Below the pieces are notes generated by a model, which had not been told where the DNA came from, made no database searches, and was given only the letters and a program-made list of their open reading frames with translations. This document shows, one piece after another, positions 1-16,296 of a stretch of 64,000 bases of DNA. This DNA comes from Spirochaetales bacterium (GTDB taxonomy: Bacteria; Spirochaetota; Spirochaetia; JABEVK01). The stretch spans positions 128,001 through 192,000 of the forward strand of contig JBAXAI010000002.1 of the NCBI GenBank assembly GCA_037142615.1, written 5' to 3'. Position 1 is the first letter of the stretch; the number at the start of each line of letters is the position of its first letter. A program made the translations under genes and the position numbers.

Positions 1-128
1 TCGCCCGGGAGCAAGAACAGCAACACCGGCATCAATAGGAAGCCGCCGCCGATTCCCGTCAGGCTGCCGAGGAAACCCAGACCGAAGCCCAGCGGGAGCC
101 CCAGCAGCAACAGTCCAAATCCGCTCAC
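1..128 (-). CDS. Sulfite exporter TauE/SafE family membrane protein (5' part; runs off window)
   Basis: Manual translation from GTG at 128: [42 protein letters not shown]; the G-x-G-G-G...P first-TM motif is typical of TauE/SafE. Confidence 0.75.
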
Positions 129-192
129 GACTCCCCACTTTCCGGTTGAAGTTCAGGTGGATTCACTGGTACATTGCCCCACCGGAGGCAAC

Positions 193-777
193 ATGACCGC
201 AAACGATACGACCGCCAACCCCGCGCCCCTCGGCCTGCTGGGTTTTGGCATGACCACCATCCTGCTCAACATTCATAACGCAGGGTTCACGCCCTTGACC
301 AGTGCCATTATGGGCATGGGGATTTTCGTCGGAGGGCTGGCGCAGGTCATCGCCGGGGTGATGGAGTTCAAAAAGAACAACACCTTCGGCGCCACGGCGT
401 TCACCGCCTACGGCTTTTTCTGGCTGTCGCTGGTCGCAATCTGGACGCTCCCCAAGATGGGGCTCGCCACCGCCAGCGACGAAGTGACCATGGGGTGCTA
501 TCTGGCCATCTGGGGGCTGTTCACGCTGGGCATGTGGTTCGGCACCTGGAAGCTCAACCGCATGCTGCAAGTGGTGTTTGGCACCCTGGTCGCGTTGTTC
601 TTTCTGCTCGCGGCGCGCGACTTCTTGAACGCCAGCGGCCCGGAAGCCGGCAAGACCGTCGGCCTCGTCGCCGGGTGGGTGGGACTGGCCTGCGGGTTCT
701 CGGCAGTCTACGGCTCGCTGGCGCAAGTGCTCAACGAAGTCTACGGCCGCACGGTGTTGCCGTTGGGCCCCCGCTAA
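193..777 (+). CDS. satP: Acetate/succinate uptake transporter (GPR1/FUN34/YaaH family)
   Basis: [19 protein letters not shown] and [15 protein letters not shown] signature; GGAGG RBS before ATG 193. Confidence 0.92.
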
Positions 778-794
778 AGGTATTCTAGGGCGTC

Positions 795-3023
795 ATGGAC
801 GCCCATACCGAAAAACAAAAACTCGCCTCGGGCCGCAACATGTCGGTCGCCGAAGGGTTCATCCAAACCATCGGCATCAACATGGGCGGCGTCTACCTGC
901 CCAACTTCATCCTGACCGCGTTTCTGCTCGAAGTGATGCACGCCTCGCACGCTCTCATCGGGCTGGCGACCAGCGTGCAGTTTTTCGTCGGCCTGCTGCA
1001 GCCGCTGGCCAACATCTTTGTGCACAAGGTGCGCTCGCGAAGGCTCGTCGCCGCCATCGCTGGCACGGTCAGCCGCCTCTTGTTCGTCAGCGCCATCTTC
1101 TACGGCATGGCCAACTCAGGCCCGGGTGCCGAGACCGTGTTCATGGTCATTCTGGTGCTGGGGGCCCTCCTCATGGCGGCTGCCAGTTCCACCTGGAGCA
1201 CCTGGATCGCCGACCTGGTGCCCGAGAGCATCCGCGGCCGGTACTTCGCCTTGCGCAACTCGATCGCCTCGGTGGCCGGCATCATCGCCGTGCTCGTGGG
1301 CGGCTGGTTGCTCAAGACCTTCCCCGGCACCGAGGGCTACGTCGTGGTGTACAGCATCGCCATTGTCACGGCCGTCATCGGCGGAATCCTCGTCCTTTTG
1401 CAGTATGAACCCGCGCAGGCCGAGCAGCCTCAGGGCTCCATGTGGTCGAGCTACAAGGAGATCCTGAAGGACCGCAACTTCATGGCCTTCGTTCGCATGG
1501 TGCTGTTCTTCAACCTGGCGCTGGTCATTGCCGGTCCGTTCTTTACCGTGCACTTCCTCGAGGTGCTGCGTCTGCCTATTGATCAGCTGGCCTACCTGAC
1601 CGCCGGCGCGGCCGTGGCCGGTATTCTGGGCAACTTCTTCTTTGGCAAAATGAGCGATATTCTGGGCAACCGCTTCATCATCCGTTTCAGCTTGCTGATG
1701 CTCATGGTGCCCACCGCGCTGATGCTGTTCATTCCTGCCCGCAACCCGCTGCCGATGGTGGCGGCCGTCATTTTACTGCAGGCGTTTTTCGGGGCCGGTT
1801 GGGGCCTGGCGACGTTCAACACCTCGTTGTCGATCTCGCCACGGGGCAAGCGGGCGCTCTACATCGGCGTGTACAATTCGCTGAACTCGGTATCGGCCGT
1901 GGCGGCGCCTATTTTGGGCGGTTTTCTCATCGACCTGTACAAGAACAACCACATTCCCGTGCTGGGGTTTGTGTTCCCGCCGACGTACGTGGTGTTCGCC
2001 ATCAGCTTTGTGCTGTTGCTGGTGGGCCTGATCACCTTCCCGTTCTATTCCGAGGGCAGCCGCCACGAGGACTACTCGCTGCGCGACGTGGTCTTCCGCA
2101 TGAACTTTCCCGAAATCCTGTACCGGCTGTTCGTGAGCACGTTTATGCCGCGCATCAGCTCACGCCACCGCCTCACCGAAGACATCGCCGACCTTCGTAG
2201 CCCCGCCGCTGTCAAACCGCTCGAGCGCCTCTTGGACGACATGGACCCCGAGGTGCGCATGAGCGCGCTCGAAGGCCTGGGCAAAACCGGGTCCGACGAC
2301 GCGGTCGAGGCCTTGCTCCACTACCACCCCCGGGCCGGCGTGCTCGAAAAGGTGGAACTGCTCAAGGCCTTCAAGGCCTTTTCGGCCGACCCCCGCGTCA
2401 AGGCCATCTTGCTCGAAGAAACCCGCTCACCGCTGTTGACCCGCCGCTTGCGCGCGCTGCGGTCGCTTGGTCCTGCGGCGTCCGAGCCTGAGGTCGCCTC
2501 GCTGGCTTTGGCCCAGCTGCAAGGGATTGGTGCGGGCAACCTCGAACTTGACGAGGAAGAGTACCTGGCCTGGGTCGAACTGTGCGTGTTGGCCAAGGAA
2601 TGGGACGTGCTGGGGCACACGTTGCCTCGGTATCCGCTGCTGAGTTTCCCGGCTGGCCGGCGGGGTCTGTTGTTCCACTGGAGCACGCTGTTCGACTTCC
2701 GCGACGACTTTTACCGCTACCTCAGCTACGAAACCCCCGACGACCGCGAAGCCATCCGCGACGAGTTGCGCGCCTCGAGCATGGAAGCCCTGGCCCGCAG
2801 CAAGACCGTCAGCGAGATCCGCCACAGCCTCAAAACGCAGGCCAAAGTGCAGGGAACCCACGCGCTGGAGTACTTCCGCACGATGGAAAAGGCCCTGTTC
2901 CACGCCCTCAAACCCTGGAACGCCAGTGTGCAGGCGCTCGTGAAGGCCCTGCTCCACCAGCCGGCCCTCACCGAGGAAGAGGAAGTGTTCCTGCTGATGA
3001 CCATCAAGAAATTGCTGGAGTAG
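795..3023 (+). CDS. MFS transporter fused to a C-terminal HEAT-repeat domain
   Basis: About 12 hydrophobic helices with DLVPESIRGRYF and GKMSDILGNR MFS motifs, then LERLLDDMDPEVRMSALEGLGKTG HEAT-like repeats. Confidence 0.8.
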   Translation: MDAHTEKQKLASGRNMSVAEGFIQTIGINMGGVYLPNFILTAFLLEVMHASHALIGLATSVQFFVGLLQPLANIFVHKVRSRRLVAAIAGTVSRLLFVSAIFYGMANSGPGAETVFMVILVLGALLMAAASSTWSTWIADLVPESIRGRYFALRNSIASVAGIIAVLVGGWLLKTFPGTEGYVVVYSIAIVTAVIGGILVLLQYEPAQAEQPQGSMWSSYKEILKDRNFMAFVRMVLFFNLALVIAGPFFTVHFLEVLRLPIDQLAYLTAGAAVAGILGNFFFGKMSDILGNRFIIRFSLLMLMVPTALMLFIPARNPLPMVAAVILLQAFFGAGWGLATFNTSLSISPRGKRALYIGVYNSLNSVSAVAAPILGGFLIDLYKNNHIPVLGFVFPPTYVVFAISFVLLLVGLITFPFYSEGSRHEDYSLRDVVFRMNFPEILYRLFVSTFMPRISSRHRLTEDIADLRSPAAVKPLERLLDDMDPEVRMSALEGLGKTGSDDAVEALLHYHPRAGVLEKVELLKAFKAFSADPRVKAILLEETRSPLLTRRLRALRSLGPAASEPEVASLALAQLQGIGAGNLELDEEEYLAWVELCVLAKEWDVLGHTLPRYPLLSFPAGRRGLLFHWSTLFDFRDDFYRYLSYETPDDREAIRDELRASSMEALARSKTVSEIRHSLKTQAKVQGTHALEYFRTMEKALFHALKPWNASVQALVKALLHQPALTEEEEVFLLMTIKKLLE

Positions 3024-3138
3024 TGGCGCAATCCCTGTCTACTAGGTAGTCATCACCTGTATACTTAATTGACATTGACATTTCCCCAAACTCACCACAC
3101 AGTTGACGTTAGTCGCGCCGGCGACAGGGGGATTTCGC

Positions 3139-4329
3139 ATGGCCATGATCGACATGCTCAAGTGGGATACGTCGAACGATCAGTTCGCCTGGAAGCATCC
3201 CGAGCAGAATCTGAGCACCTTTACCCAGTTGATAGTTCACGAGACCCAAGAGGCTGTCCTTTTTTCCAAGGGAAAGCTTATGGGTAAGTTTGGACCGGGA
3301 AAGCACACCCTCGACACCGAGAATCTTCCGATCCTCCGAAGCCTTTTTGGTCTTCCTTTCGGCGGAAAGAACCCGTTTACCGCCGAAGTCTGGTACGTCA
3401 ACAAGGTTGCCCCGCTGAATATCCCTTGGACCACCGACGCGATGCGCTACATGGACCCCGGTTATGGCGTGATGGTACCCGTTCGTGCCGAAGGACAGTA
3501 CGGGCTGCAGATCACCGACGCCGAGAAGTTCCTGCTGAAGCTCGTCGGAACCGTGCCCAGCTTCGATTCGCGGGCCCTGACGGCCCAGTTTCGCGGAGAG
3601 TTGATCAGCAAGACCAAGAGCACCATCATGGCCAAGATGACCCAGGAGAAGATCAGTGTTCTGGAGATCTCGGGTTACCTGTCGGGCATCTCGGACTACC
3701 TGAAGCAGATCATGACGGAGTTCTGGAGTGAAGTCGGCTTCCGTCTCAACTCGTTCTATGTGACCAGCATCGATGTCGACAACTCGACTGCCGAAGGCCA
3801 AAAGATCATCGAAGCCATGACCTCGAAGTCAGCCCGGCAGATCGAGGGCTACACCTACCAGCAGGAACGCTCGTTCGACACGATGCAGGTCAGTCCGTTG
3901 GCCGGAATCGGGCTGGGCCTCGGAGTCGGTGCAGGCATGGCCGGCTCGATGGCCACGCCGGGGTCCGCACCCGGCACCGTCGGCGCTTCAGGTCTCAGCG
4001 GGGTGGGGATGGGCACTACCGCCGGCGCTTCCCAGGTCTTCTGCGCCAAGTGCGGCACCAAGACCGGCGGGGCGAAGTTCTGTCCGTCTTGCGGCAAAGG
4101 ATACAACCCCTGTCCCGGCTGCGGCGGCGACAACTTGGCCGACGCCGTCAAGTGCGTCATGTGCAGCCGACCCCTCGGAAAGGCCTGCACCAAGTGCAAG
4201 GCACCCCTGGCTCTCGATGCTAAGTTTTGCCCCAACTGCGGCAACACCCTGAAAAAGACCTGCGGCAAGTGCGGCACAGTCAGCGAAGAAGGCGTGAAGT
4301 TCTGTCCCAACTGCGGGAGCGGGCTGTGA
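3139..4329 (+). CDS. SPFH/Band-7 (virion-core-like) protein with C-terminal multi zinc ribbon
   Basis: QLIVHETQEAVLF...FGPGKHTLDTENLP...PFTAEVWYVN SPFH subtype motif; Gly-rich segment; 8 CxxC motifs. Confidence 0.85.
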   Translation: MAMIDMLKWDTSNDQFAWKHPEQNLSTFTQLIVHETQEAVLFSKGKLMGKFGPGKHTLDTENLPILRSLFGLPFGGKNPFTAEVWYVNKVAPLNIPWTTDAMRYMDPGYGVMVPVRAEGQYGLQITDAEKFLLKLVGTVPSFDSRALTAQFRGELISKTKSTIMAKMTQEKISVLEISGYLSGISDYLKQIMTEFWSEVGFRLNSFYVTSIDVDNSTAEGQKIIEAMTSKSARQIEGYTYQQERSFDTMQVSPLAGIGLGLGVGAGMAGSMATPGSAPGTVGASGLSGVGMGTTAGASQVFCAKCGTKTGGAKFCPSCGKGYNPCPGCGGDNLADAVKCVMCSRPLGKACTKCKAPLALDAKFCPNCGNTLKKTCGKCGTVSEEGVKFCPNCGSGL

Positions 4330-5039
4330 ACCTGCCCGAACCTCGCCTGGCACGGCCCCCGCAAGGCCGTGTGACCACCTGGGTTACCTGGTCGGGCGCG
4401 GCTTTGGCCGTAGCTGGCTGCTACGTTGCCTGGGAATACCTGCTTCCTGCGGTGTGGCAGACCACCTCGGTTGCTTTTTCCCTCGGAGCGCTCTCGGTGG
4501 GCTTTCTGGCCTCGTGCTTCTCGTTTGGCGTGCTTCTCGACGAGGGCCGTGCCGATCCGAAATCGGTCCCAGTGTTGGCCGTGCGCCTGTCACTGGCTCT
4601 GGCTTTCACCGGCTGGATCACCTTTTTCGTCCTCGGTCGCTCCGTACTGGCGCCGTGGTCCGAAAATGTTTGGGTTTTGGTGGGAGCCTTGATTCTGGTG
4701 GGTCTCTACCTCGCAACCCTGCTGATGGGCGGCAAGGTCGATCAGGTGGCTGCCGCCGAAGCCGAAAAACTCGAGAACCTGACCCGCATCCGGGCCAAAG
4801 CCTCGCGCCTTCTCGCAGACCTTCAACTCGAGGGTTCGGCGTCAGCGCGTGAAAAGGCCGCGCGGGTCGTCGACGAACTCCGCTACCTGAGCCCCGCCGA
4901 AGGCACTGCCGCGTGGGAGACCGAAATGGAAATTCTGCAGGCGCTGACCGACCTTCCCGGCAGCCCTGCGTCCGAACAAGAAAAGCACTTCGACCGCCTG
5001 CTGAGCCTGATCAGCAACCGTCGCAAGTTTCTGAACTGA
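4326..5039 (+). CDS. Hypothetical membrane protein (4 TM plus C-terminal helical domain)
   Basis: GTGA overlap with the upstream stop; four hydrophobic segments; soluble tail VVDELRYLSP...ETEMEIL. Confidence 0.8.
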   Translation: MNLPEPRLARPPQGRVTTWVTWSGAALAVAGCYVAWEYLLPAVWQTTSVAFSLGALSVGFLASCFSFGVLLDEGRADPKSVPVLAVRLSLALAFTGWITFFVLGRSVLAPWSENVWVLVGALILVGLYLATLLMGGKVDQVAAAEAEKLENLTRIRAKASRLLADLQLEGSASAREKAARVVDELRYLSPAEGTAAWETEMEILQALTDLPGSPASEQEKHFDRLLSLISNRRKFLN

Positions 5040-5064
5040 ACCGATCTGACCACCACAGGGGGAC

Positions 5065-7194
5065 ATGATGAAGGGAAAGGTATTTCCGGGCTCGACGAGC
5101 CTGCACGAGGACAAGGCGCGGTTGCTCTTCGATTACTTCAAGGGGGCGGCACAACGTATTGTCACCCAAGAGCTTGAGTTCGAAGCAAGGATCGACGAAC
5201 AGCGGCGCGAGGTCGTCCGCCTTAAGGAAAAGGGCCGGAAAGATTTGCTGCTCAAGGGCTTGGTCGGCGGACTCGTCGGCTTGCTGATTCTTGGCTACGG
5301 TCTCTACGACCTGATCGCAAATGGTGGGGCGTTTGTGATTTCGCTGGTCGGGTTTGTCGTTGGCCTGGTGGCTGGCTTGTTGGTCTTCCTCGACAAGCGC
5401 AAGGAAACCGCCGGCATAACGCTCGCCGAAACCAAGATTGCGACTTTCGAAGAGGAACACCGGAACATTCGGCGCGACTTCAAAGTCCACCGGGTGGGCA
5501 CCGTCTACGTGCCAGTGGCCACGCGGGTACCCTTCCGGGGGCGCAGTTTCCTCCTCGATCATACCCGTCAGGTTCCGACGCAGAACTTCACCCTCGCCGA
5601 GATTCGCGACGTCGAGGAACTGAAGCAAGCCGTTTCGTCCATGGATTCCCTGCTCGAGGCCATTCCCGCTGTCGATGGCGGGACCGACAGTGAGACCATC
5701 GATACCAACGGCCTGTCGCGCTCGATTCCGAAGATCACCATGAACGAATGGTCGGCTTCGCTCGACAGGCAACTTCGCAAGATCAACTACCTATTTCAGG
5801 ACCTCATCCAGACGTCGATCGACATTCCCATCATCGCGCCCGACAGCGAATATGCCCGCTTCCTCGAAGAGTATGCAGCCGACGCCCGGGTGCCATCGCT
5901 CGAACTCAAGGTTTTTCCGACCGAGAACCTCGAATCGGCCCTTCAGGGCTTTCAAAAGCTGGCTGACCTTTCAGACTCCAAGACCACAGGTAACGAACGG
6001 GGCGTCGAGGACTTCTGCCGCAGCATCATGAAGAAGTCTTCGAACACTCTGCAACTGCTTTCGCAAACGCGGGCCAAGTCGCTGCAGACGCTCAACCTCA
6101 TCACCGAGGGCTTCTTTTCCTCGGTGGCCAAGGCGTCGTTCAACTACTACAACCCGGTGGCCGAGGCCGAGAGCATCGACCGCATCCGCCAGGAAACCTT
6201 CAACTTGGAAGACAGCGCCGAGAACTATGAAAACCTCGAGCTGAAAAAGAGCTCGAAGATGAGCTACGACCCCATTTCGGACAACTGGGTGGCTGAAGAC
6301 GGTTCCCGCTCGTCGTTCCCTTTTGGCATGAGCCAGGTGTTCGAAGAGGTGTTCGTCCCGATGATCACCAACCTGATGCAGGAAAACCGGCTTGAGCGCC
6401 TCAAGATCTACAACGCGATCAAGGATCAAAAGACCGACTACCTCAACCAATGGCATCGCGACACCGACACGTTCTACGCCAGCAATCGCGCCGAAATCAA
6501 CGAGATCTTCAACCGCATCCGCACGATCAGTTCTGACTTCATGAGCGATCTGAACACGTTCAAGGCCTACGCCGAGACGCTGAAGAATATGCGCCGCGGC
6601 CAGAGTTCGGCCGACGTTTCCGACGAGCTGAAAATGGGCGTAGAGGAACTTGCCGCCTTTGAGGCCCAGGCTCAGGTCAGCCAAGCTTTCCTTGCCCAGT
6701 TTGGCGAGACCCTCGATAACATCAAGGACGAGATCAACACGCTCGCCCACGAGTTCGAACACATCGAGTTTTTCGAGGCGTCGCTGCGTGACGGCGAAGC
6801 TCGTGACTACGCGCTGGCCATGGGCCGAACCGACTACGACGAACGCCAAAAGAAGCTGCTCGCGCTGGGGCCGCAGATCGCGTCGGGAGGCAACCTGCCC
6901 CCGGTGCCACAGGTTTCCGACCAAGTGGAGCGCGATTTGCTCATCAATCTCGACGCTGTGTTTGAAAATACGCTCCAGCAGATCCTCGAGAGTGAACGCA
7001 CTTTAACCGAGAAGGCCGCTGCCAAGGTTGCCGACGAGCCTGCACCCGCGCCCCAGCCCGAACCAACGCCTGAACCCGAAGCAACGGCTCCCCCAAGCGC
7101 CGAACCCGGGCCCGAAGAGGAAGACGAGGACGACGAGGACGACGAGGAAGACGAGGAAGACGAGGAAGACGACAGCGGAAAAGGAAAACGCTGA
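5065..7194 (+). CDS. Large coiled-coil protein with a two-helix hydrophobic hairpin and acidic tail; function unknown
   Basis: 709-aa ORF with G-rich RBS; two hydrophobic helices near residues 60-110; no NTPase motif seen. Confidence 0.85.
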   Translation: MMKGKVFPGSTSLHEDKARLLFDYFKGAAQRIVTQELEFEARIDEQRREVVRLKEKGRKDLLLKGLVGGLVGLLILGYGLYDLIANGGAFVISLVGFVVGLVAGLLVFLDKRKETAGITLAETKIATFEEEHRNIRRDFKVHRVGTVYVPVATRVPFRGRSFLLDHTRQVPTQNFTLAEIRDVEELKQAVSSMDSLLEAIPAVDGGTDSETIDTNGLSRSIPKITMNEWSASLDRQLRKINYLFQDLIQTSIDIPIIAPDSEYARFLEEYAADARVPSLELKVFPTENLESALQGFQKLADLSDSKTTGNERGVEDFCRSIMKKSSNTLQLLSQTRAKSLQTLNLITEGFFSSVAKASFNYYNPVAEAESIDRIRQETFNLEDSAENYENLELKKSSKMSYDPISDNWVAEDGSRSSFPFGMSQVFEEVFVPMITNLMQENRLERLKIYNAIKDQKTDYLNQWHRDTDTFYASNRAEINEIFNRIRTISSDFMSDLNTFKAYAETLKNMRRGQSSADVSDELKMGVEELAAFEAQAQVSQAFLAQFGETLDNIKDEINTLAHEFEHIEFFEASLRDGEARDYALAMGRTDYDERQKKLLALGPQIASGGNLPPVPQVSDQVERDLLINLDAVFENTLQQILESERTLTEKAAAKVADEPAPAPQPEPTPEPEATAPPSAEPGPEEEDEDDEDDEEDEEDEEDDSGKGKR
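7117..7170 (+). repeat. In-frame 9-nt tandem repeat (GAGGAMGAC x6) encoding an E/D tract
   Basis: Six consecutive GAGGAAGAC/GAGGACGAC units read directly. Confidence 0.9.
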
Positions 7195-8132
7195 TGGCAC
7201 GCTACGACTTTCTCGTTGACACCACCCCGATGGGCCACTCGTTGTCGACCTTGGCCGAAGGCGTGCGCACCACCAGCGTGACCGTGCTTTCGTCGGCCGA
7301 GGCCATCGCCTTGGCTGAAGCCGAGGCAGCGAAGAAGATCAGCTACCACGTGAGCGAAGGCTTCTTCAACCTCGTGGTCAGTCAGCTCAACCAGAAGATG
7401 GCACGGCTTCGCAGTTCGCTTCAGGCCAAGGATGCTCAACTGCTCGCCGAACGCAAAACGGCCGATCTCCTGCGGTTGCAGTTTCTCCGCGACTTCCAGA
7501 TGATCAAGAGGCGCTATCACAAGCTTTTCAACACCCTGAACAAGTCGCTCAAGCTACGGGTGTATGAACTCGACAAACCTCTGACGTCGGTGCTCGTCGG
7601 AGGCTTTCAGGCCAACATCAAGCAGCGCAATCAGAACCTGGCGATTCCCGCACTTCTGACCACCGAAGGTCAGTCGGCCGGGCAGGGTATGGAAATCGGC
7701 CGCACCAAACAACAGGCTCTACGGCTGATCGAGGCCATTCGGGCCTACCTTATGAAGACTTTCGAGGTTCAGGCCCACATCAACGCCATGCTCACCGACG
7801 ACCTGGCCGACGATCGGATCGACATCCTTTTGCCTTCGTTGATGTTCGAGTTTGATTCGCAGGCAGTGGGCATCCGCGGTACCCAGTTCCAGTTCGCCGG
7901 TGCCCCTGGCGAGTCGCAGGGACTCTACCATGACGTCGTTCAGGCCGTGAGCGGCGTTGAAATTGCCGAAGAAGCCTGGGAGCCGGTCGAGGTGACGGAA
8001 CGCGACCGCGTCGTCGCGGAGTTCCAGAAACTGCTCGATGCCTCGTCGCTCTCCGTTCGTGAAAAGGCCGAGGCTAGCCGCCTGATGGCCTCTCAGGAGT
8101 CGTGGTTCGAGGTGCGTGGAGAGCAAGCATGA
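7194..8132 (+). CDS. Hypothetical coiled-coil protein (paralogue A)
   Basis: TGATG coupling; VDTTPM...DFQMIKRRYHKLFNTLNKSLKLRVYELDKP. Confidence 0.85.
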   Translation: MARYDFLVDTTPMGHSLSTLAEGVRTTSVTVLSSAEAIALAEAEAAKKISYHVSEGFFNLVVSQLNQKMARLRSSLQAKDAQLLAERKTADLLRLQFLRDFQMIKRRYHKLFNTLNKSLKLRVYELDKPLTSVLVGGFQANIKQRNQNLAIPALLTTEGQSAGQGMEIGRTKQQALRLIEAIRAYLMKTFEVQAHINAMLTDDLADDRIDILLPSLMFEFDSQAVGIRGTQFQFAGAPGESQGLYHDVVQAVSGVEIAEEAWEPVEVTERDRVVAEFQKLLDASSLSVREKAEASRLMASQESWFEVRGEQA

Positions 8133-9166
8133 GCTATACACGACACTTTCAGGCTTCGATCACCGTCAGTGGCTCGAAGACCGTCAGCTACCCCAAGAGT
8201 GAGTCCGGCGGGTCGATGACTGTCAACTACTCCGAAACCGAACCCCTCGATTTCTACATCGAGGTCGACACCAACCCCGTGGACCATGGAGTATCTGAAA
8301 TGCACGGCCAAATCGCTGGCCTCAACGCGGCAGTCGTCGCCGGTGCCCAACAGCAGATCCGCGAGAAGCGCGCGGGAGCCGACAAGATTTCTACCACCGT
8401 GATCACTGAGTTCAGCAACTACATCACCGGTGACATCAAGCAGGAAATGGCCTCGCTCAAGAGCGCCATCGCCTCGCGCCAAGCACTGCTGCATGCCGAG
8501 GGCCAAGCGGCGGGTGCACGACACCAGCAGTTTATCGGCGACTACCGACGCATCAAAGAGCGGTACGCCACGCTGTTCCACAACCTCGACAAGGAGCTTG
8601 AACGGCGAGTCCGCGCCATTGACGAGCCGGTGTTCCGGCTGGTTCAAGATTCGTTCCTGCAGGGCATCAAAAATCGCTCGGGCACGGCCCTCCGGTCCTC
8701 GCTTCTGGGAGTATCCGAAAGCGGCGCCGCCCGCCAGGCGCTCGAAAACACCGGCGTCAAGCGTCGGAATCTGCAATTGCTGCAGTTGGCCGGCGAGTTC
8801 CTGCTCGGACAAAAGGAACTGGAGCACCGTATCGCGGCCATCTTGACTCCTGACGAGTGCGAAGACGCGACGGTTTTGTCGGTGCCGGTGGTCCTGCTCG
8901 AGACCGAGGACAGCACCGGCCGAAAGTCCCACGAGCGCCACGCCGCCGATTCTCCCCCGCTCGAAACCGGTCAGGCCGCCTGGGATTTAGCCGACTGGGG
9001 CACGATGTCCGAGACGGCCCGCGAGTCGCTCGACAAGGCCTTCTTGGAACTGGTGGGCGAAGACTCCGCCCATCTCAGCGAGCGCGAACTGGGACTCATT
9101 CAGCAATTGTGGTCGGATTGCCGGCCACTCACCAACGACGAGAGAGGAACCACATGGACAAACTGA
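8129..9166 (+). CDS. Hypothetical coiled-coil protein (paralogue B)
   Basis: ATGA coupling; VDTNPV...DYRRIKERYATLFHNLDKELERRVRAIDEP aligns by eye with the upstream gene. Confidence 0.85.
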   Translation: MSYTRHFQASITVSGSKTVSYPKSESGGSMTVNYSETEPLDFYIEVDTNPVDHGVSEMHGQIAGLNAAVVAGAQQQIREKRAGADKISTTVITEFSNYITGDIKQEMASLKSAIASRQALLHAEGQAAGARHQQFIGDYRRIKERYATLFHNLDKELERRVRAIDEPVFRLVQDSFLQGIKNRSGTALRSSLLGVSESGAARQALENTGVKRRNLQLLQLAGEFLLGQKELEHRIAAILTPDECEDATVLSVPVVLLETEDSTGRKSHERHAADSPPLETGQAAWDLADWGTMSETARESLDKAFLELVGEDSAHLSERELGLIQQLWSDCRPLTNDERGTTWTN

Positions 9167-10113
9167 AGACGGTCAGCTTCAACGACCAAAAAATCGTTCT
9201 CAAGAACAATCTTGTCGAGTCAGACATTCTCCCCGGGGCAATGAAAGACCTCGGCCGCGACATCACCGTGGACGGCGAAACTGTTGTCCAAGGCGCCATC
9301 TTCGCGCGCAATCTTCAAGTGAACCACGGACCGCTCAAGGTCGAGGGGGCCGTTTTCGTCAACAAGGAATTGCACGTCAATACCGACTGCACTGGGACCT
9401 TGACGTTTCGCAAGGCCGTGGGTTCCAGCGAGGCTATCAGTTGTCTTTTGGCCAAATCGAGGGCCTATTTCCTGAGCGATGTCAGCGGAAAGAAAATCAC
9501 ACTTCGCAATTGTTTTGTCTCGGGAAGCGTCCTCGCCGACGAGATTGATCTCGAGAATTGTGTTGTCGCAGGCGGGGCTTTTGCCACCAAAAAGCTCTCG
9601 CTCAAAAACTGCGTGCTGGGAACGTTCAACGCCACCTCGGTTCTGGTGACCGGCGTGAACTACCTGCTTATGCCCAGCGCGTTCAGCGTCGAGGCCTTGG
9701 TGAACAGCGGCAAGGCTGAGTTCTGGAACCTTACCACACTCGACTTGTCGGCGCTGGTTTTCGGCCAGGCCAACCCCGAAGGGTCGGGAAAGGTGGCCAT
9801 GAACTTCGAGAGCGACAGCCTTCCTATCAGCCTTTTCGATGCACAAGACAACAAGACCATGGTCCGCTCGTTCTCGATCGCGGGGAAAGTGATGATGGCC
9901 GATGTGTTGAAGCTCGAAGACCTCGAGAACCACTTCATCCTTCGGTCGGCAACGTTGGCAGGTCATCTGGAGAAAACCTACCGCACCAGCGTAGGCGAAC
10001 TCGACCCGGTCAAAATCGCTGACAGCCTGTTTACTCTCCTTGAAGGAAAGGCACTGATACCCGAGGTGAAGCGAACTGTCAGTCTCGACGACCTGCGGGC
10101 CCTGTCAGTCTGA
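9154..10113 (+). CDS. Hypothetical beta-helix protein (bactofilin/polymer-forming-like)
   Basis: AGAGGA RBS before ATG 9154; repeated VxGxxxxxGxIxA-type short beta strands (ITVDGETVVQGAIFA, LKVEGAVFV, FVSGSVLA, VVAGGAFA). Confidence 0.7.
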   Translation: MDKLKTVSFNDQKIVLKNNLVESDILPGAMKDLGRDITVDGETVVQGAIFARNLQVNHGPLKVEGAVFVNKELHVNTDCTGTLTFRKAVGSSEAISCLLAKSRAYFLSDVSGKKITLRNCFVSGSVLADEIDLENCVVAGGAFATKKLSLKNCVLGTFNATSVLVTGVNYLLMPSAFSVEALVNSGKAEFWNLTTLDLSALVFGQANPEGSGKVAMNFESDSLPISLFDAQDNKTMVRSFSIAGKVMMADVLKLEDLENHFILRSATLAGHLEKTYRTSVGELDPVKIADSLFTLLEGKALIPEVKRTVSLDDLRALSV

Positions 10114-10579
10114 GAACTGCCAAGCCAGCTTCGAGCCGCTCTCGGGCCTCCGCCTTGCGGTCGCTCGCGAGTTGCTCGAACACATCGATCAACTCGTCGA
10201 GCGCACGCTCGATCTCGGAGCTGGTATTTCCCGCCGCCAACGCCCCTTGCAAGGCTGCGGTCAGGGCCTCGGCGTAGCGGAGCTGAAAGTCGGTCTCGGA
10301 GCCCGGGGACGCCTGAGCCCAAAGCAGGTTCAGTTGCTCGAGCCGCTGGCGAAAGGCACCCGAAGGAAACTCGCTGATCAGTCGCTGGTAGTCGCGAAGG
10401 TCTGGCGCTTCGGCAGGCCTTGTGGCCCCGGGTCGCAACCCCCGGTTCACCAGAAGCCCCAGCGCGGCGCCCGCTGGCAGAGCCAGCCAGGAGCTTAGTC
10501 CCAGAAAAAGGCCTAGCAAGGCCGCGCCCCCCAGGCCGACGACAAACGCGATGATGATCCGGTCCGACGCTTTCATCAC
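10079..10579 (-). CDS. XpaC-like (5-bromo-4-chloroindolyl phosphate hydrolysis family) membrane protein
   Basis: Two N-terminal TM helices; C-terminal IERALDELIDVFEQL...LEAGLAVL resembles the XpaC C-terminus (by eye). Confidence 0.55.
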   Translation of the reverse strand: MMKASDRIIIAFVVGLGGAALLGLFLGLSSWLALPAGAALGLLVNRGLRPGATRPAEAPDLRDYQRLISEFPSGAFRQRLEQLNLLWAQASPGSETDFQLRYAEALTAALQGALAAGNTSSEIERALDELIDVFEQLASDRKAEARERLEAGLAVLRLTGPAGRRD

Positions 10580-10707
10580 CCTATTGTAAGTTCAATCGCA
10601 ACTGTGTCCAAGGGCTGGGTGCGCCCCGTCAGTTCGACCCCGTCTACCGGCAGTTCACCACGAACAATCCCTGAATCTGCCCAAAATGGGCATCGTGTCC
10701 GCAGCGT

Positions 10708-11541
10708 CTACTTCTTTTTAGGCGCCTTTGCCGGGACGAGCGCCGCACGCAGCGCCTCCGCGTTGCGGGCATGGAACTCAAGCAGAAGCTGCTGAACGTC
10801 GCTGAACCATTTCTTCTGGACAGTGCACGCGGGGACCCCGAGATAGCGGAAGTGCCAGGGCTCATATTGGTAACCGGTGACCGCCTCCCCTCCGTTGGGG
10901 TAACTCATCGACAGCCCGTACTCCCCGGCGTGTTCGGCCATCCACTTGCCTTCGGGCGTGTCGGCAAACTCGGGCGTGATGCTGCCAAAGTCGACCACGG
11001 TGCCCAACTGATGTTGGCTGTGGCCAGCCCGGGCCGAGTACCGGTCGGCGGTCGCCACGCCGTCCTTTTGCACGTACGAAGTAAACAGGTCACGCTGGTA
11101 GATCCAGCTGCGGTACGCCGACGAGAACACCAGGTTGAGTCCGGCTTTTTTGGCGGCCTTGCTCAGAGTTTGCAGGGCGGGCACGTAGGCCTTGCGGAAC
11201 TTCAGGTCGCTGCGGTTCAGCGGAAGGCTGTAGTTCTTGAGCAGCACCAGGTCTTTTGGCTCGTAGTCGTTGGCAAGCGAGGTCTTTTTATCGACGAGAA
11301 CCAGTTGGTCGGCGGGCGCGGTGAGCAGGGGAAGGTAGTCCTTCAGGAACCCGGCCGGGTCCGCCAGGATGGTGGCGCGAGCGGGCTCGGGTACGGCCTC
11401 GACCAAGGGGGCAAAGGTCGTCACTGTGAAGGTAAACAGCGGTGACACAAGAGGTTGTGCCGTTGCAGCAGCCGGAAGGGCAGCCAGGACCCCGAACAAG
11501 ACGGCGGCCGGCAGAACGGAACCACCAACGCGACGCCTCAC
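10708..11541 (-). CDS. D-alanyl-D-alanine carboxypeptidase, M15B/VanY family
   Basis: SAYRS, SARAGHSQHQLG..D and YEPWHFRY motifs; signal peptide. Confidence 0.92.
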   Translation of the reverse strand: MRRRVGGSVLPAAVLFGVLAALPAAATAQPLVSPLFTFTVTTFAPLVEAVPEPARATILADPAGFLKDYLPLLTAPADQLVLVDKKTSLANDYEPKDLVLLKNYSLPLNRSDLKFRKAYVPALQTLSKAAKKAGLNLVFSSAYRSWIYQRDLFTSYVQKDGVATADRYSARAGHSQHQLGTVVDFGSITPEFADTPEGKWMAEHAGEYGLSMSYPNGGEAVTGYQYEPWHFRYLGVPACTVQKKWFSDVQQLLLEFHARNAEALRAALVPAKAPKKK

Positions 11542-13979
11542 TCCCAGTCCGCCTTGGGGGCCTTCAGGGGCCGGGGAGGGCGTGGTGGCAATTTGCGCTC
11601 ACCGGGTTTGAGCCCGAGCAGAATCTCGATCACCGAGTCCATGCGGTCGACCAGGTGGAACTCGAGCCCCTTGCGGATGTAGGCGGGAATCTCTTCCCAG
11701 TCCTTGAGGTTGCTTTGGGGGAAGATGACGGTCTTGATGCCGGTTCGACGCGCCGCGATCACCTTTTCTTTGAGGCCGCCGATGGGCATCACCTTGCCGG
11801 TCAGGCTCAGCTCGCCGGTCATCGCGTGGCTCTTCTTCACTACCTTGCCGATGGCCAAGCTGGTGAGCGCGGCCGCCATGGTCACACCGGCGCTCGGGCC
11901 GTCTTTGGGCGTGGCACCCTCGGGGATGTGCAGGTGCACCAAGTACTTATCAAAGAAGCTCTCGGGAATGCCGTAGTCGGCCGTGTGGCTGTGAACCCAC
12001 GTGTAGGCAATCTGCGCGCTCTCTTTCATGACCTCGCCCATGCGGCCGGTGAGCTTGATGCCGCCTTTGCCTTCGGTTCTCACGGCCTCGATGACCAGCA
12101 CAGCGCCGCCCATGTTGGTCCACGCGAGGCCCAGCACCATGCCCGGAAGCACGGGCGGCAGGTCTTCTTCCTCGGGAAAGTAGGGTTTTCCCAAGAAGGC
12201 GTTCAGGTCGGCGGTATCGACAGGGAAAGGCGGCTCAAGGCCTTCGACCACCACCTTGAGCGCCAGCTTGCGGTGGATCTTGTCGAGCGACTTTTCGTAG
12301 TTGCGCATGCCCGACTCGCGGGCGTAGCGGCGGCCGATCTCGGCCAGCGCTTTCTTGGTGTACTTGACGCTTCCCTTGGGCAAACCAGCGGCAGCGGCGC
12401 TCTTGGGCACGAGGTACTTTTGCGCGATGGCGACCTTTTCCTCTTCGATGTAGCCCGACAGCCTTATGACCTCCATGCGGTCCAACAGGGGCTTGGGGAT
12501 GCTGTCGAGGCTGTTGGCCGTGCAGATGAACAGGATCTGCCCCAAGTCGAAAGGAAGGTCGAGGTAGTGGTCGCGAAAGGCGACATTTTGTTCCGGGTCA
12601 AGGACTTCCAACAGCGCGCTGGAGGGGTCTCCCTGGTAGCTGGTGCCGAGTTTGTCGATCTCGTCGATCATGAACACCGGATTTTTTTTGCCGGCAATCT
12701 TGAGTCCCTGAAGCACCTTGCCCGGCATGGCGCCCACGTAGGTGCGCCGGTGCCCCTTGATTTCGGCCTCGTCGCGCATGCCTCCTACCGAAAAGCGAAA
12801 GAACGGACGTCCAAGGGCCTTGGCAATGCTCTTTCCGATGCTGGTTTTGCCAACGCCGGGAGGGCCCATGAGCAGCACAATGCTTCCCTTGTTGTCGTGC
12901 TTGAGCTTGCGCACCGCCAGAAACTCGAGCACCCGCCCCTTGACGTCTTCGAGCCCATAGTGGTCGGCCTCGAGGATTTTTTTGGCACGGGCCATGTCGA
13001 TCTCGTCGGTCTTCTCGTCGTTCCAGGGTAAGGCGCAGATCGTCTCGAGGTAGTTGCGGGTCACGAAGAACTCGCTGCTGTTGGGGTCCATTTGAGCGAA
13101 CTTTTCGAGCTCGGTTGCCGTGGACTCGCGGGTTTCACCGGTGAGATGGTAGCTGTCGATTTTTTCGCGGAACCGGGCCAGATCCTGGCTCTTGGGATCG
13201 GTGGTGATGCCGAGCTCTTTCTGGATGGCCTTGAGCTCCTCGCGAAGGAAAAACTCGCGCTGGTTCTTTTCAATCTTCTCGTTGATCTGTTTGCTGATGC
13301 GCTTCTGGATGCGCAGCAGTTCCTGCTCCTTCTTGATATGGACGAGCACCTGCTGCATCCGCTCGCGCAGGTCGATGGTTTCGAGCAGTTTCTGCTGGCC
13401 CTCGCGGGGAATGTTCATGATGCTGGCCACAAAGTCGGCGAGCTTGCCGGGTTGGTCGATGTTGACCATGTTGAGCCGCACTTCCTCGCTGAACAGGGGG
13501 TTGTTCTCGCTGAGGGTTTTCATCTCGCTGAAAATACTCCGGGTGAGGGCCTTGATTTCCTGGGCGCTGGCGGTGCCGGTGTCGTCGTCCAGGTATTCGA
13601 CGGCGGCCGTCCGCCAGGGGCTGTCGGACAACATCTTCTTCACCTCAAAGCGTTTGATGGTGCTGACGAAGATGCTGAGCCCACCATCGGGCAGGTGGAT
13701 CTTCTTGAGGATCTTGGCCGCCGTGCCCACCTTGAAAAAGCGGTCGGCCGAGGGCGGGGCGTCGTCTTCCGACTCCTCGATGAGCAGCAACAGTCCGATC
13801 ACCTTGGTGGTGGCCATCGCGTCTTCAATCACGGCGACGTCGTCTTTGTCGGTGATCATCAGCGGGGTGAAAATACCCGGAAAAATGGGACGGCTTTCGA
13901 GCGGAATGAGCGAGATCTTGCTGGGAAGCACCTTATCGGCCGGTACTGGCAGGGGAGGGTCAAGGAGAGGGTCAGACAT
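11538..13979 (-). CDS. lon: ATP-dependent protease La (Lon)
   Basis: GPPGVGKTS Walker A, IDEIDK, PKDGPSAG catalytic Ser, PIGGLKEK; start placed at ATG 13979. Confidence 0.97.
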   Translation of the reverse strand: MSDPLLDPPLPVPADKVLPSKISLIPLESRPIFPGIFTPLMITDKDDVAVIEDAMATTKVIGLLLLIEESEDDAPPSADRFFKVGTAAKILKKIHLPDGGLSIFVSTIKRFEVKKMLSDSPWRTAAVEYLDDDTGTASAQEIKALTRSIFSEMKTLSENNPLFSEEVRLNMVNIDQPGKLADFVASIMNIPREGQQKLLETIDLRERMQQVLVHIKKEQELLRIQKRISKQINEKIEKNQREFFLREELKAIQKELGITTDPKSQDLARFREKIDSYHLTGETRESTATELEKFAQMDPNSSEFFVTRNYLETICALPWNDEKTDEIDMARAKKILEADHYGLEDVKGRVLEFLAVRKLKHDNKGSIVLLMGPPGVGKTSIGKSIAKALGRPFFRFSVGGMRDEAEIKGHRRTYVGAMPGKVLQGLKIAGKKNPVFMIDEIDKLGTSYQGDPSSALLEVLDPEQNVAFRDHYLDLPFDLGQILFICTANSLDSIPKPLLDRMEVIRLSGYIEEEKVAIAQKYLVPKSAAAAGLPKGSVKYTKKALAEIGRRYARESGMRNYEKSLDKIHRKLALKVVVEGLEPPFPVDTADLNAFLGKPYFPEEEDLPPVLPGMVLGLAWTNMGGAVLVIEAVRTEGKGGIKLTGRMGEVMKESAQIAYTWVHSHTADYGIPESFFDKYLVHLHIPEGATPKDGPSAGVTMAAALTSLAIGKVVKKSHAMTGELSLTGKVMPIGGLKEKVIAARRTGIKTVIFPQSNLKDWEEIPAYIRKGLEFHLVDRMDSVIEILLGLKPGERKLPPRPPRPLKAPKADWE

Positions 13980-14064
13980 ACGGGTGAATTTAGGGATTTT
14001 GGAGCCCCTTGGCAATGGGCTCCGCGTTCTGTGCAGAAGCTCGGGCTTCTGGTATTGTGGCCCC

Positions 14065-15270
14065 ATGCCCGTTCCCCGCTTCCACTGGGTTCTTTTCGCT
14101 GCGTCGTTCCTGCTGCAGTTGGCCTGCGGCATGGAGAACTACGCCCTGATCTTCTACGTCCGCGACCTGTTTGGCGCCGACAAGACCGCCGTGGGCTGGA
14201 TCTCGGGGGGGCTCGACCTGGCGTACCTGTTCGGCCTGTTGGCCTTTTTGCGCTGGAGGGCCCCGCACCCCCGCAAGGTCCTGTGGCTATCGACGTGGTC
14301 GATGGCCCTTACCATCGCCGTGTACCTGGTGGTCCCCAACTGGACGGTCACGTTTGTGTTCCACGCGCTGTTCGGCCTGGCCATGGCGCTGTTTTGGCCC
14401 CGCGTGATGGGCTGGCTGAGCTGGGGGGTGGAAGGGTCTTCGCTGACGCGAACCATGGGTCTGTTCAACATCAGTTGGTCGCTGGGAGCCATTTTGTCAC
14501 CGTGGCTGGGCGGGCTACTGGTCGAGCTGGGCCCGCGCTGGCCCTTTGTCGTGGCGGTGGTCTTGCTGCTGCTCACGGGCTTGCTCATGCCGATCGGCAG
14601 TCGGCTTTTTCCTGCCATGCGGGCTCCCGCCCAAGCGCCTGCCTCGGCCCATGCCGGTGGTGCTCCGGTTGGTGCTCCCCTGGACCCTTCGTCGCGTCCT
14701 TCGCCGCTGCGTTACGCAGCCCGGCTCGGCATTGGCGCCACGTACTTTCTCAGTGGTTCACTTCTGTTCATTTTTCCCGCCTGGGCGCAGGACACCCTGG
14801 GTTTTTCGGAGTCCACCTCGGGCGGGCTCTTGCTGGTACGGATGGCGGTGGCCTCGCTGGGCTTCAGCCTGTGGGGACGCTTGAGCTTTTGGCATCACAA
14901 GTTCTGGCCCTTGGCTACCGGCATGGGGCTGCTGATCGTCCTTACACTTCTGTTTCCGCTGGGAACGTCGTTGTGGGAGTTTACCTTGCTGTTCGCCGCT
15001 TCGGGTTTCCTGTTCAGCTTCTTGTACAGCACCACGCTGTTCCATGGCGTGTCGGGCAGCGTTCACCGCGAACGGTCCACAACCCTGCACGAAGCGATGA
15101 TCAACATCGGCCTGTTTCTCGGCACGGTCGCCGGCGGTTGGGTGAGCCAGACCTGGACCATGGGCACGGCGTTTGTGCTGTGCGCGGCCGTGCTGGCCGG
15201 CCTGTTGGGGTTGCAGGGACTGATGTACAAGGCTACGCTGAACCATGCTCGAAATCACGGCCCAACATAG
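14065..15270 (+). CDS. MFS transporter
   Basis: About 12 TM helices starting at MPVPRFHW; divergent from lon. Confidence 0.85.
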   Translation: MPVPRFHWVLFAASFLLQLACGMENYALIFYVRDLFGADKTAVGWISGGLDLAYLFGLLAFLRWRAPHPRKVLWLSTWSMALTIAVYLVVPNWTVTFVFHALFGLAMALFWPRVMGWLSWGVEGSSLTRTMGLFNISWSLGAILSPWLGGLLVELGPRWPFVVAVVLLLLTGLLMPIGSRLFPAMRAPAQAPASAHAGGAPVGAPLDPSSRPSPLRYAARLGIGATYFLSGSLLFIFPAWAQDTLGFSESTSGGLLLVRMAVASLGFSLWGRLSFWHHKFWPLATGMGLLIVLTLLFPLGTSLWEFTLLFAASGFLFSFLYSTTLFHGVSGSVHRERSTTLHEAMINIGLFLGTVAGGWVSQTWTMGTAFVLCAAVLAGLLGLQGLMYKATLNHARNHGPT

Positions 15271-15538
15271 CAGTTCCCGAGGTTCCTTCGTCGCCACGCT
15301 GGAGGGCCAGGTCATCGGCCGTGTCGACTACGTGCGCTTGGGGACGGAAGCCGAGCCGGGCACTTTCGACCTGATCCACACGGGTGTCGAGCCGGCTCAC
15401 GAGGGCAAGGGGTATGGCCGTCAGTTGGTGCACGCCGCCGCCGAGTGGGCCGAGGCCCAGGGCCACACGCTGGTCGCCAGTTGCCCGTACGCGGCCAAGA
15501 TCCTGGAACGCAGATCGCGCGCGCCGCGCCCCGAATGA
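15245..15538 (+). CDS. Small GNAT N-acetyltransferase (YjdJ/Acetyltransf_CG-like)
   Basis: HTGVEPAHEGKGYGRQLV and CPYA motifs. Confidence 0.85.
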   Translation: MLEITAQHSSSRGSFVATLEGQVIGRVDYVRLGTEAEPGTFDLIHTGVEPAHEGKGYGRQLVHAAAEWAEAQGHTLVASCPYAAKILERRSRAPRPE

Positions 15539-16296
15539 GCCGCGACTACACCTTCGAAGCCCTGGTGCTTCGCCGTTTTCCTGTCGGCGAAGCGCACCGC
15601 TCGGTGACGTTTCTCACCCGCGAACGGGGTCTGCTGTCGGCCATCGCCCACGGCGCCGCCAAAAGTACCGGCCGCCTCAAGCTGCTCACCACGCCCCTGC
15701 GCCACGTGCGCCTCAAGGCGTATCACGATCCTGTGGCCGACAGTTGGAAGGTGGTCGATCTCGAGGGTTTGAACCTGCTCGGCGGGCTGGGCGAGGTGCT
15801 CGAGCGAAGCGCCACCGCGAGCTTTTGGACAGAACTTCTGTTGGCCAGCTGGGAATCGGGAGGGGTGTTCGACTTGTTCGCCGAAGCCTTGAGCCTGCTC
15901 GACACCGCCCCGGCCCACACCATCACGTGGCTCGATGCCCAGGTGCTGTGGCGAGCCCTCGACACGGCGGGGCTCATGCCCGACTTTTCTCGTTGTTCGC
16001 AGTGCGGCGAACCTCTGGCCGGCCAAAGGGTGCGGCTGTCGGGCGAGTCTGGTGACCCGCTGTGTCCGGCCTGCGGGGGTGCTCGCGGCCGCACCGAGGC
16101 AGGGCTTTCGCCGCAGGCCCTCGACACCCTGCTCGCGACGCTTGTTTTTCCTCTCGGGGAGGCACTCGCGGCGCCTGCTTCAACCGACGACGCAGACCAC
16201 CTCGAGCGCGAGGGCGTCCGGGCTTGGGAGCGGGCGCTCGGGCGCTCGTTCCGCTCTTTGCGGTTGACCAGAGTTCCACCGCCGCCCCATACTTGA
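15535..16296 (+). CDS. recO: DNA repair protein RecO
   Basis: EALVLRRFPVGEAHRSVTFLT...AIAHGAAKS; CxxC...CxxC zinc finger. Confidence 0.9.
   Translation: MSRDYTFEALVLRRFPVGEAHRSVTFLTRERGLLSAIAHGAAKSTGRLKLLTTPLRHVRLKAYHDPVADSWKVVDLEGLNLLGGLGEVLERSATASFWTELLLASWESGGVFDLFAEALSLLDTAPAHTITWLDAQVLWRALDTAGLMPDFSRCSQCGEPLAGQRVRLSGESGDPLCPACGGARGRTEAGLSPQALDTLLATLVFPLGEALAAPASTDDADHLEREGVRAWERALGRSFRSLRLTRVPPPPHT

Follow-up and report, generated by a model that had tools for sequence, protein, structure and literature searches.

A conserved six-gene module with an SPFH-zinc-ribbon protein, two membrane proteins, paralogous hairpin proteins and a bactofilin-like protein: a candidate sub-membrane scaffold

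A stretch of 64,000 nucleotides from a Spirochaetales bacterium (assembly GCA_037142615.1, contig JBAXAI010000002.1, positions 128,001 to 192,000; hereafter the window, with positions counted from its first letter) carries six genes between 3139 and 10113, here called A to F, which constitute a genuine gene module that is strongly conserved and has not been described before. The module encodes an SPFH-zinc-ribbon protein (A), a protein with four transmembrane (TM) segments (B), a large protein with a TM hairpin (C), two paralogous hairpin proteins (D and E) and a protein with a bactofilin-like N-terminal half (F). It shares the architecture of one component with YdjI/SamI and possibly includes a bactofilin-like polymer. 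We tentatively propose that its products form a polymeric scaffold beneath the membrane, organised by the SPFH protein and with a role in membrane or envelope stress. That the products form a complex, polymerise and act in stress is presumed in this proposal, which we regard as plausible and somewhat short of probable.

The six open reading frames (ORFs) lie co-oriented on the plus strand and overlap or nearly abut (Table 1). A check of ORFs and junctions reproduced the coupled layout and all coordinates given in a preliminary description of this DNA, made from the sequence alone. The arrangement is more than chance, as the gene order repeats in other genomes. A scan anchored on C, with one genome per species (185,579 species), yielded 335 relatives among 376 candidate stretches, and the best 80 loci were kept. 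The other genes were counted by tblastn with the window proteins, considering only loci with enough flanking sequence. A was found in 65 of 67 loci (it was missing in L011 and L042), D in all 73, E in 67 of 68 and F in all 61; a divergent copy of E in L052 was recovered by clustering. All five genes, with C as the anchor, stood at their expected places in 51 of 54 loci. B was mostly too divergent for direct tblastn; in an all-against-all comparison, a TM protein of about 240 amino acids from 75 loci formed a single cluster. No seventh conserved gene was detected, the next non-shadow cluster covering 5 loci, and none of the genes flanking the module in the window was conserved in the other loci.

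Metagenomes gave the same picture. A scan with an independent anchor, starting from distant relatives of F, returned 63 canonical-type loci. The complete order A-B-C-D-E-F was present in 33 of the 34 loci in which 6.9 kb or more precede F, the remaining one (L151) having no match to A. The other 29 loci were partial (BCDEF, CDEF, DEF, EF, F or ABCDE); they are taken as cut by contig ends, since the sequence preceding F is too short in 28 of them and L170 stops short of F. Within the phylum, an F-anchored scan of 401 genomes, including the window's own, gave seven strong matches (the own genome among them) and one weak match. All five Spirochaetota regions that were fetched contained the module in order, one of them cut by its contig and one without A. 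The suggestion of the preliminary description that these genes form a conserved operon was thus borne out, homologues co-occurring across phyla in genomes and metagenomes alike.

According to record titles, the best 80 loci comprised 37 of spirochaete type, 20 of Bacteroidota type, 7 from Acidobacteriota, 6 from Actinomycetota (Coriobacteriia-type), 3 from Lachnospiraceae, 2 of Ignavibacteria type, 2 unlabelled and 1 each from Deferribacteraceae, Fibrobacteres and Desulfovibrionaceae. The titles of module carriers span at least nine phylum-level groups. The sampled habitats of the hosts are gut, rumen, termite, soil and freshwater, and at least one carrier is cultured by its record title (Treponema zioleckii kT3, L049).

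A is the sole product with a named family. Pfam placed Band_7_1 at residues 23-216 (E 1.2e-34) and several zinc-ribbon models at the C-terminus (DZR, E 4.2e-17), together with a weak match to PF01145 (E 2.3e-5); PADLOC, NCBIfam and PHROGs contributed no more. The SPFH domain is followed by a glycine-rich low-complexity linker and then by several zinc ribbons, and the family alignment (27 sequences) contains invariant cysteine pairs. Identity of A across phyla amounts to 44-65%. The protein has no hydrophobic segment and is therefore predicted by hydropathy to be soluble; neither TM nor signal-peptide-like segments were detected by this analysis in A, D, E or F. In one Rikenellaceae locus, a second SPFH-like ORF of 376 amino acids, which blastp places with A, is located just 3' of F (L078:15220-16347, plus strand).

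B has three strong hydrophobic segments and a weaker N-terminal one by hydropathy, and its family alignment shows four hydrophobic blocks. Its C-terminal helical part, predicted to be cytoplasmic, has a conserved R-Y-L-S-P-like motif. No known family was found for B in Pfam, PADLOC, NCBIfam or PHROGs, and hhalign detected no relation between B and C. The loops of both proteins obey the positive-inside rule.

For C, an AlphaFold2 model (mean predicted local distance difference test, pLDDT, 74.8) suggests a long N-terminal helical hairpin (residues 13-85 and 90-133) whose tip would form the membrane segment (about 62-110); hydropathy places a TM hairpin at about residues 60-112. Both flanks of this hairpin are rich in lysine and arginine, and the ends of C are therefore predicted to be cytoplasmic. 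Beyond the first hairpin, the model has an alpha/beta domain (about 150-260), further helices, another long hairpin (422-512 and 519-565) and a disordered acidic tail. Searches for known folds and PDB sequences covered C, D and E, using models of C and E and family profiles of D and E. No match to C at E <= 0.001 was found with Foldseek in PDB or BFVD, where matches were generic, as they were in VIA; a trend towards MscS/YnaI-type channels (E 0.3-1, TM-score <0.1) was not significant. Pfam assigned no family to C, and a scan of its family alignment (63 sequences) gave scattered weak coiled-coil matches and no consistent family. The ESM Atlas returned the C family alone, hhalign detected no relation of C to D/E, and the homologues of C listed from the protein database are all labelled hypothetical. 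The acidic tail is encoded by a GAA/GAC-rich stretch. Within this stretch, at 7121-7169, a DNA contig of sequencing run X2 shows a 49-nt joint that goes back, with 20 extra letters, which points to a repeat-length variant between populations.

D and E are paralogous, their families matching each other in hhalign with a probability of 100% (E 1.7e-58). The AlphaFold2 model of E (146-row alignment, mean pLDDT 82.7) suggests a long N-terminal beta-hairpin (strands 3-21 and 28-46), a 116-residue helix (49-164) that doubles back onto another helix (166-238) and, at the C-terminus, a small alpha/beta part. The strands of the hairpin, of about 19 residues each, alternate hydrophobic with Ser/Thr-type residues, so that the hairpin is amphipathic, and this pattern is conserved in 28 sequences. 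D likewise has a long helical hairpin, and lacks the N-terminal beta-hairpin of E. Family profiles of D and E gave nothing below E 0.19 against PDB sequences. No match to the E model at E <= 0.001 was found with Foldseek in PDB; only the hairpin of about 46 residues was matched, by beta-barrel pore stems at a non-significant E of 0.4-1.5, and VIA returned coiled coils only. In Pfam, the common D/E alignment (146 sequences) gave no consistent family, with weak matches to FliD_C in 16 and PspAA in 6 of the 146 sequences. All D/E homologues listed from the protein database are labelled hypothetical; one Joint Genome Institute (JGI) label, Csm2 small subunit (P0288), was taken as a mislabel. A prediction of the D-E complex scored 0.25 against a mark of 0.32 and was counted neither for nor against binding.

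The N-terminal half of F has a repetitive sequence of beta-helix type that is weakly bactofilin-like, and the rest of the protein is a C-terminal domain of about 130 residues. Weak Bactofilin matches were obtained for 20 of the 35 members of the F family (best E 2.6e-5). A feature search of the ESM Atlas with F returned first its own clusters and then Bactofilin clusters at 0.82-0.85, which serve as leads only. In members from Acidobacteriota and Actinomycetota, F ends with a zinc ribbon after a linker, and a zinc ribbon was present in 7 of 10 sampled distant relatives. One protein of 578 amino acids (P0148) has an F-like N-terminus (1-205) followed by ABC-F-type ATPase domains, an arrangement that could reflect a fusion or else a chimera of assembly or gene calling.

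No enzyme, nucleoside triphosphatase (NTPase) or nuclease family was found in the six products (Pfam, PADLOC, NCBIfam) or in the C and D/E family alignments (Pfam). For B to F, nothing reached the threshold in Pfam, NCBIfam, PADLOC or PHROGs. In PADLOC-DB 2.0.0, which includes systems to 2023, A, B, C and F matched no families and D (E 0.034) and E (E 0.016) gave chance-level matches, none being below 0.01. We found no description of this gene set, or of SPFH and bactofilin proteins together, in the literature, supplementary tables aside. The functions offered in the preliminary description (envelope stress or repair, microdomain scaffolding, anti-phage defence) and its stoichiometric assembly stay hypothetical. 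Several of its statements were upheld: that B has four TM segments, that D and E are paralogues, that the products show no enzyme, NTPase or nuclease motif, that the parts are structural and membrane-associated (as judged by hydropathy and the lack of enzyme families), and that no named system fits the set.

A reduced form of the module indicates which of its parts are central. The metagenome scan also returned 17 sister-type loci, several of them near-duplicates. In 15 of the 16 examined, a distant C homologue (C', 570-860 amino acids with two TM segments), a single D/E homologue (DE', about 315 amino acids, without the long N-terminal beta-hairpin) and a distant F homologue (F') occur in this order with no A or B; the sixteenth locus is cut at its start. 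Because these sister modules keep C, D/E and F without A and B, we consider the C-(D/E)-F triad to be the core and the SPFH-zinc-ribbon and 4-TM proteins to be additions. The preliminary description had treated the SPFH protein as the lead component, a view that the sister modules do not sustain. In one sister locus, a gene directly 5' of C' encodes a protein of 708 amino acids in which a double zinc ribbon at the N-terminus precedes Band_7 (E 1.2e-7) and a C-terminal zinc ribbon (L121:4254-6377, plus strand), representing a second, different association of the triad with an SPFH-zinc-ribbon protein.

The closest known parallel concerns A. YdjI/SamI is described in PMC8581546 as a soluble SPFH protein that carries a low-complexity region and, at its C-terminus, zinc finger(s). 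According to four sources (PMC8581546, PMC13713150, PMC11237479, bioRxiv 10.1101/2021.02.15.431232), YdjI reaches the membrane through the membrane proteins YdjG and YdjH, and PspA foci depend on it. Band_7_1 was also detected in our Bacillus subtilis control genome. The module thus shares with the B. subtilis pspA-ydjGHI (samGHI) operon i) a soluble Band_7_1 SPFH protein that has a low-complexity stretch and one or more zinc fingers at the C-terminus, ii) an SPFH gene beside integral membrane proteins and zinc ribbons on more than one component, and iii) parts that are cytoplasmic-side or membrane-bound, with a long coiled-coil hairpin protein as presumed effector. It differs in that no counterparts of B to F are reported for that operon, and that the SPFH protein is here an add-on to a core which also exists alone. 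No TPM or zinc-ribbon match was found in B or C, and none to PspA_IM30 in the six products or in the C and D/E family alignments (Pfam).

Zinc ribbons recur next to the module as well. Among the nearest flanking ORFs (117 of 119 were scanned, two of more than 1000 amino acids being dropped), 8 matched Zn_Ribbon_1. In about ten loci, the module adjoins genes for proteins that combine one or more N-terminal zinc ribbons with a low-complexity linker, a single TM segment and an extracytoplasmic portion, here called ZnR-TM proteins (Table 1). Judged from sequence, this layout is reminiscent of that reported for YdjG. Neighbours of the sister loci included ZnR-TM-TonB_C and kinase-TM-SH3_3 proteins.

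Two further comparisons are informative. The N-terminal half of F resembles bactofilins (PF04519) in the weak family matches and Atlas neighbours given above, and by analogy a polymer-forming, membrane-proximal role would fit the remaining module. F differs from bactofilins in lying below the Pfam cut-off, in its extra C-terminal domain with a zinc ribbon in some lineages, and in its fixed association with families that are not described as bactofilin partners. With the flotillin, HflK-HflC and stomatin-NfeD systems, the module has in common an SPFH protein at the cytoplasmic membrane with operon partners. Unlike those proteins, A lacks a TM or hairpin anchor, falls in the Band_7_1 branch and has zinc ribbons; among the six products, Pfam matched neither an NfeD-like partner nor a protease.

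Our proposal assumes that the six products would form a single self-contained assembly, without enzymatic parts, at the cytoplasmic side of the cytoplasmic membrane. C, whose TM hairpin tops a long helical stalk, and the 4-TM protein B would be the anchors. C, the D/E hairpins and the bactofilin-like F might together build a polymeric or lattice-like scaffold under the membrane. A would be a soluble adaptor recruited by the membrane partners, organising or gating the assembly by analogy to the action of YdjI on PspA in B. subtilis. Zinc ribbons on flexible linkers, as in A, in F of some lineages and in the neighbouring ZnR-TM proteins, could act as tethers, and the envelope-facing ZnR-TM proteins of some lineages could report the state of the envelope. 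The assembly would stabilise or reorganise the membrane under envelope or membrane stress, or serve membrane organisation. The YdjI/SamI architecture of A and the recurring neighbours with extracytoplasmic parts tilt the evidence mildly towards such a role at the envelope or membrane.

Several observations weigh against the scaffold proposal. F of the window (P0006) scored 13.3 bits with the Bactofilin model, for which the Pfam cut-off is 27.9, and its earlier labelling as a beta helix is weakly supported. The module contains no PspA/ESCRT-III gene, and against a profile of 14 PspA sequences of the clade D/E reached an hhalign probability of 0.4% and C of 0.5%. Replacement of PspA by the module was ruled out, as the genome has its own PspA on another contig (G000:C23:19736-20401) and PspA occurs in 31 of 41 relatives; because PspA is encoded elsewhere, the module is neither its replacement nor demonstrably tied to it. 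The SPFH protein is dispensable, since the two genome loci without A have enough flanking sequence. No stress-responsive regulator was found within the module. Finally, the spread is patchy: C was present in 2 of 41 relatives of the window genome (own included) and in none of four genomes of the same genus, and the strong F matches in the phylum and the C relatives across species are sparse too. Such patchiness would not be expected of a housekeeping stress system, and an accessory or conflict role would suit it just as well.

The sister modules allow a bolder version, possible but doubtful in our judgement, in which the C-(D/E)-F triad is an unrecognised, widespread bacterial machine beneath the membrane with its own function, a new class of anchored coiled-coil/beta-helix polymer (for example a damage patch or a triggered breaching device) and not a variant of PspA, flotillin or bactofilin systems. 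The triad would then exist in two forms, with and without the SPFH-zinc-ribbon and 4-TM additions, and the E hairpins of the six-gene form would enter the bilayer, or seal it, from its cytoplasmic face.

A role in conflict would give these parts another meaning. Kiwa and Zorya are membrane-acting anti-phage systems with TM components, and the module resembles such systems in its multiple genes, integral membrane proteins, patchy occurrence and parts without obvious nuclease. An anti-phage or conflict system of this kind would kill or arrest the cell by membrane permeabilisation, the E hairpins or B and C breaching the membrane once triggered and the scaffold sensing or regulating; we consider this unlikely. 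The self-contained cassette with unrelated flanks and patchy spread would suit it, as would the conserved amphipathic hairpin of E, whose look-alikes are, at the non-significant level given above, pore stems. The long hairpin is, however, absent from D and DE', which places it outside the core. Nor did we recognise a sensor, NTPase, nuclease, motor or ATPase, and the cross-phylum identity of A is such that it appears slow for an arms-race gene. No PADLOC family was matched at E <0.01, and the module does not lie in defence islands: the 117 flanking ORFs were mixed, mostly with housekeeping or metabolic Pfam families, and included two integrases and sporadic defence matches (Cas3-type 2, AbiEi 1, PD-T4-6 1 and few others).

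The phylogeny of C bears on the same question. In a FastTree phylogeny, the only tree made, C sequences are mostly coherent by phylum, the window C grouping with two Spirochaetota metagenome-assembled genomes. Some cross-phylum nesting, which would favour a conflict role, was seen: Lachnospiraceae and Coriobacteriia clades fall among gut Treponema, and the Deferribacteraceae sequence groups with termite-gut Treponema. The C of L070 (labelled Desulfovibrionaceae) is nearly identical to that of L069 (Treponemataceae; branch lengths 0.016 and 0.019), representing either a very recent transfer or a binning error. Either some transfer or errors of binning could account for the exceptions as a whole. 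Searches of viral contigs (with the C alignment), of plasmids (tblastn of C) and of PHROGs gave no relatives, and the idea of prophage or plasmid cargo was dropped on these grounds. The lack of PADLOC matches, of defence-island flanks and of phage or plasmid copies tilts the evidence away from defence.

The scaffold might also be constitutive, without any stress role: a cytoskeletal, morphogenetic or intracellular-compartment structure that positions machinery or shapes a membrane domain. Very long coiled-coil hairpins are typical of bacterial cytoskeletal elements, and such hairpins are predicted in C, D and E, beside the bactofilin-like F. Peptidoglycan-related neighbours occur in places (VanY in the window; Peptidase_M15_4 and SH3_3 in L112), and SPFH proteins organise membrane domains, as stated in PMC8581546. 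A core shape determinant is disfavoured, since close relatives differ, as in the same-genus genomes without C, and host shapes are diverse (spirochaetes, Bacteroidota rods, Lachnospiraceae, Coriobacteriia); in addition, no client enzyme is conserved alongside. We rate a constitutive scaffold, too, as improbable. A membrane-remodelling or export device (vesicle, tube, or translocation of protein or lipid), with C and B as active parts on a cytoplasmic platform of D, E and F, would make use of two conserved integral membrane proteins, of the long stalk and large domain predicted for C beneath the membrane, and of the MscS/YnaI-type trend as the sole Foldseek trend of C, but it is highly improbable given non-significant structural matches and the absence of an ATPase or energy source and of a conserved cargo or secreted partner.

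If the module is a membrane-protecting or membrane-organising scaffold, the YdjI/SamI-type SPFH protein would be a swappable organiser, serving PspA in Bacillus and C, D, E and F here, and this would give a concrete handle on the role of soluble SPFH-zinc-ribbon proteins. If it is a conflict system, it would represent a defence type without an enzymatic part. The triad and six-gene forms offer a natural experimental comparison.

Table 1. Coordinates of the module genes, the upstream motif and related loci. Positions without a locus prefix refer to the window.
Feature	Position	Strand	Product	Remark
A	3139-4329	+	396 aa	first gene
B	4326-5039	+	237 aa	GTG start; stop of A overlapped by GTGA
C	5065-7194	+	709 aa	25-nt gap after B containing AGGGGGA
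D	7194-8132	+	312 aa	TGATG junction with C
E	8129-9166	+	345 aa	ATGA junction with D
F	9154-10113	+	319 aa	13-nt overlap with E
Tandem TTGACA TTGACATTGACA	3069-3080	+		possible promoter element, -35-like; read from sequence
ZnR-TM neighbours	L021:15308-16627(-), L026:8371-9237, L030:15420-16781, L036:9910-11319, L041:5734-7065, L073:11156-12535			
Sister loci L111-L129	e.g. L112:7227-11308, L114:7306-11128			metagenome

Upstream of A lies an intergenic gap of 115 nt that includes the tandem TTGACA. The preliminary description had pointed to an AT-rich gap with this motif. The motif is present and the G+C content is lowered (0.526 in 3001-3500, against 0.56-0.65 in the remaining 500-nt bins of 1-16000), but no complete sigma-70-like promoter turned up on the plus strand upstream of A in a consensus scan, and the TTGACA pair therefore ranks as a mere -35-like motif.

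Contigs from RNA libraries of one freshwater sample (runs X6 and X14) match parts of A, C, D, E and F at at least 99% identity among the pieces listed, one piece beginning within the last 52 nt of B. Among the same pieces, the B/C, C/D, D/E and E/F junctions are bridged. DNA may occur in RNA libraries, a contig over two genes does not prove a single transcript, and the depth of run X6 extends upstream of the operon too; because of possible DNA carry-over, we regard these contigs as a weak hint of expression at most, and bins that no contig covers carry no weight. Near-identical DNA is present in freshwater and lake metagenomes, five runs containing at least half of the sampled words, and the runs holding such DNA come from 11 studies, one of which is possibly the source.

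As for the flanks in the window, the upstream neighbour (795-3023, plus strand, 742 amino acids) encodes an MFS transporter fused to a C-terminal HEAT-repeat part and is not kept beside the module in other loci. A gene for a VanY-type D-alanyl-D-alanine carboxypeptidase (10711-11541, minus strand) lies two genes 3' of F, and a Peptidase_M15_4 gene holds the same position relative to F' in a sister locus that also has SH3_3 (L112:12619-13320, plus strand); with two cases only, this recurrence may be chance. A convergent ORF of 166 amino acids (10079-10579, minus strand) overlaps the 3' end of F by 35 nt. Its product matches no Pfam family and has an N-terminal hydrophobic segment, and a promoter-like site on the minus strand (10610-10583) lies near this ORF.

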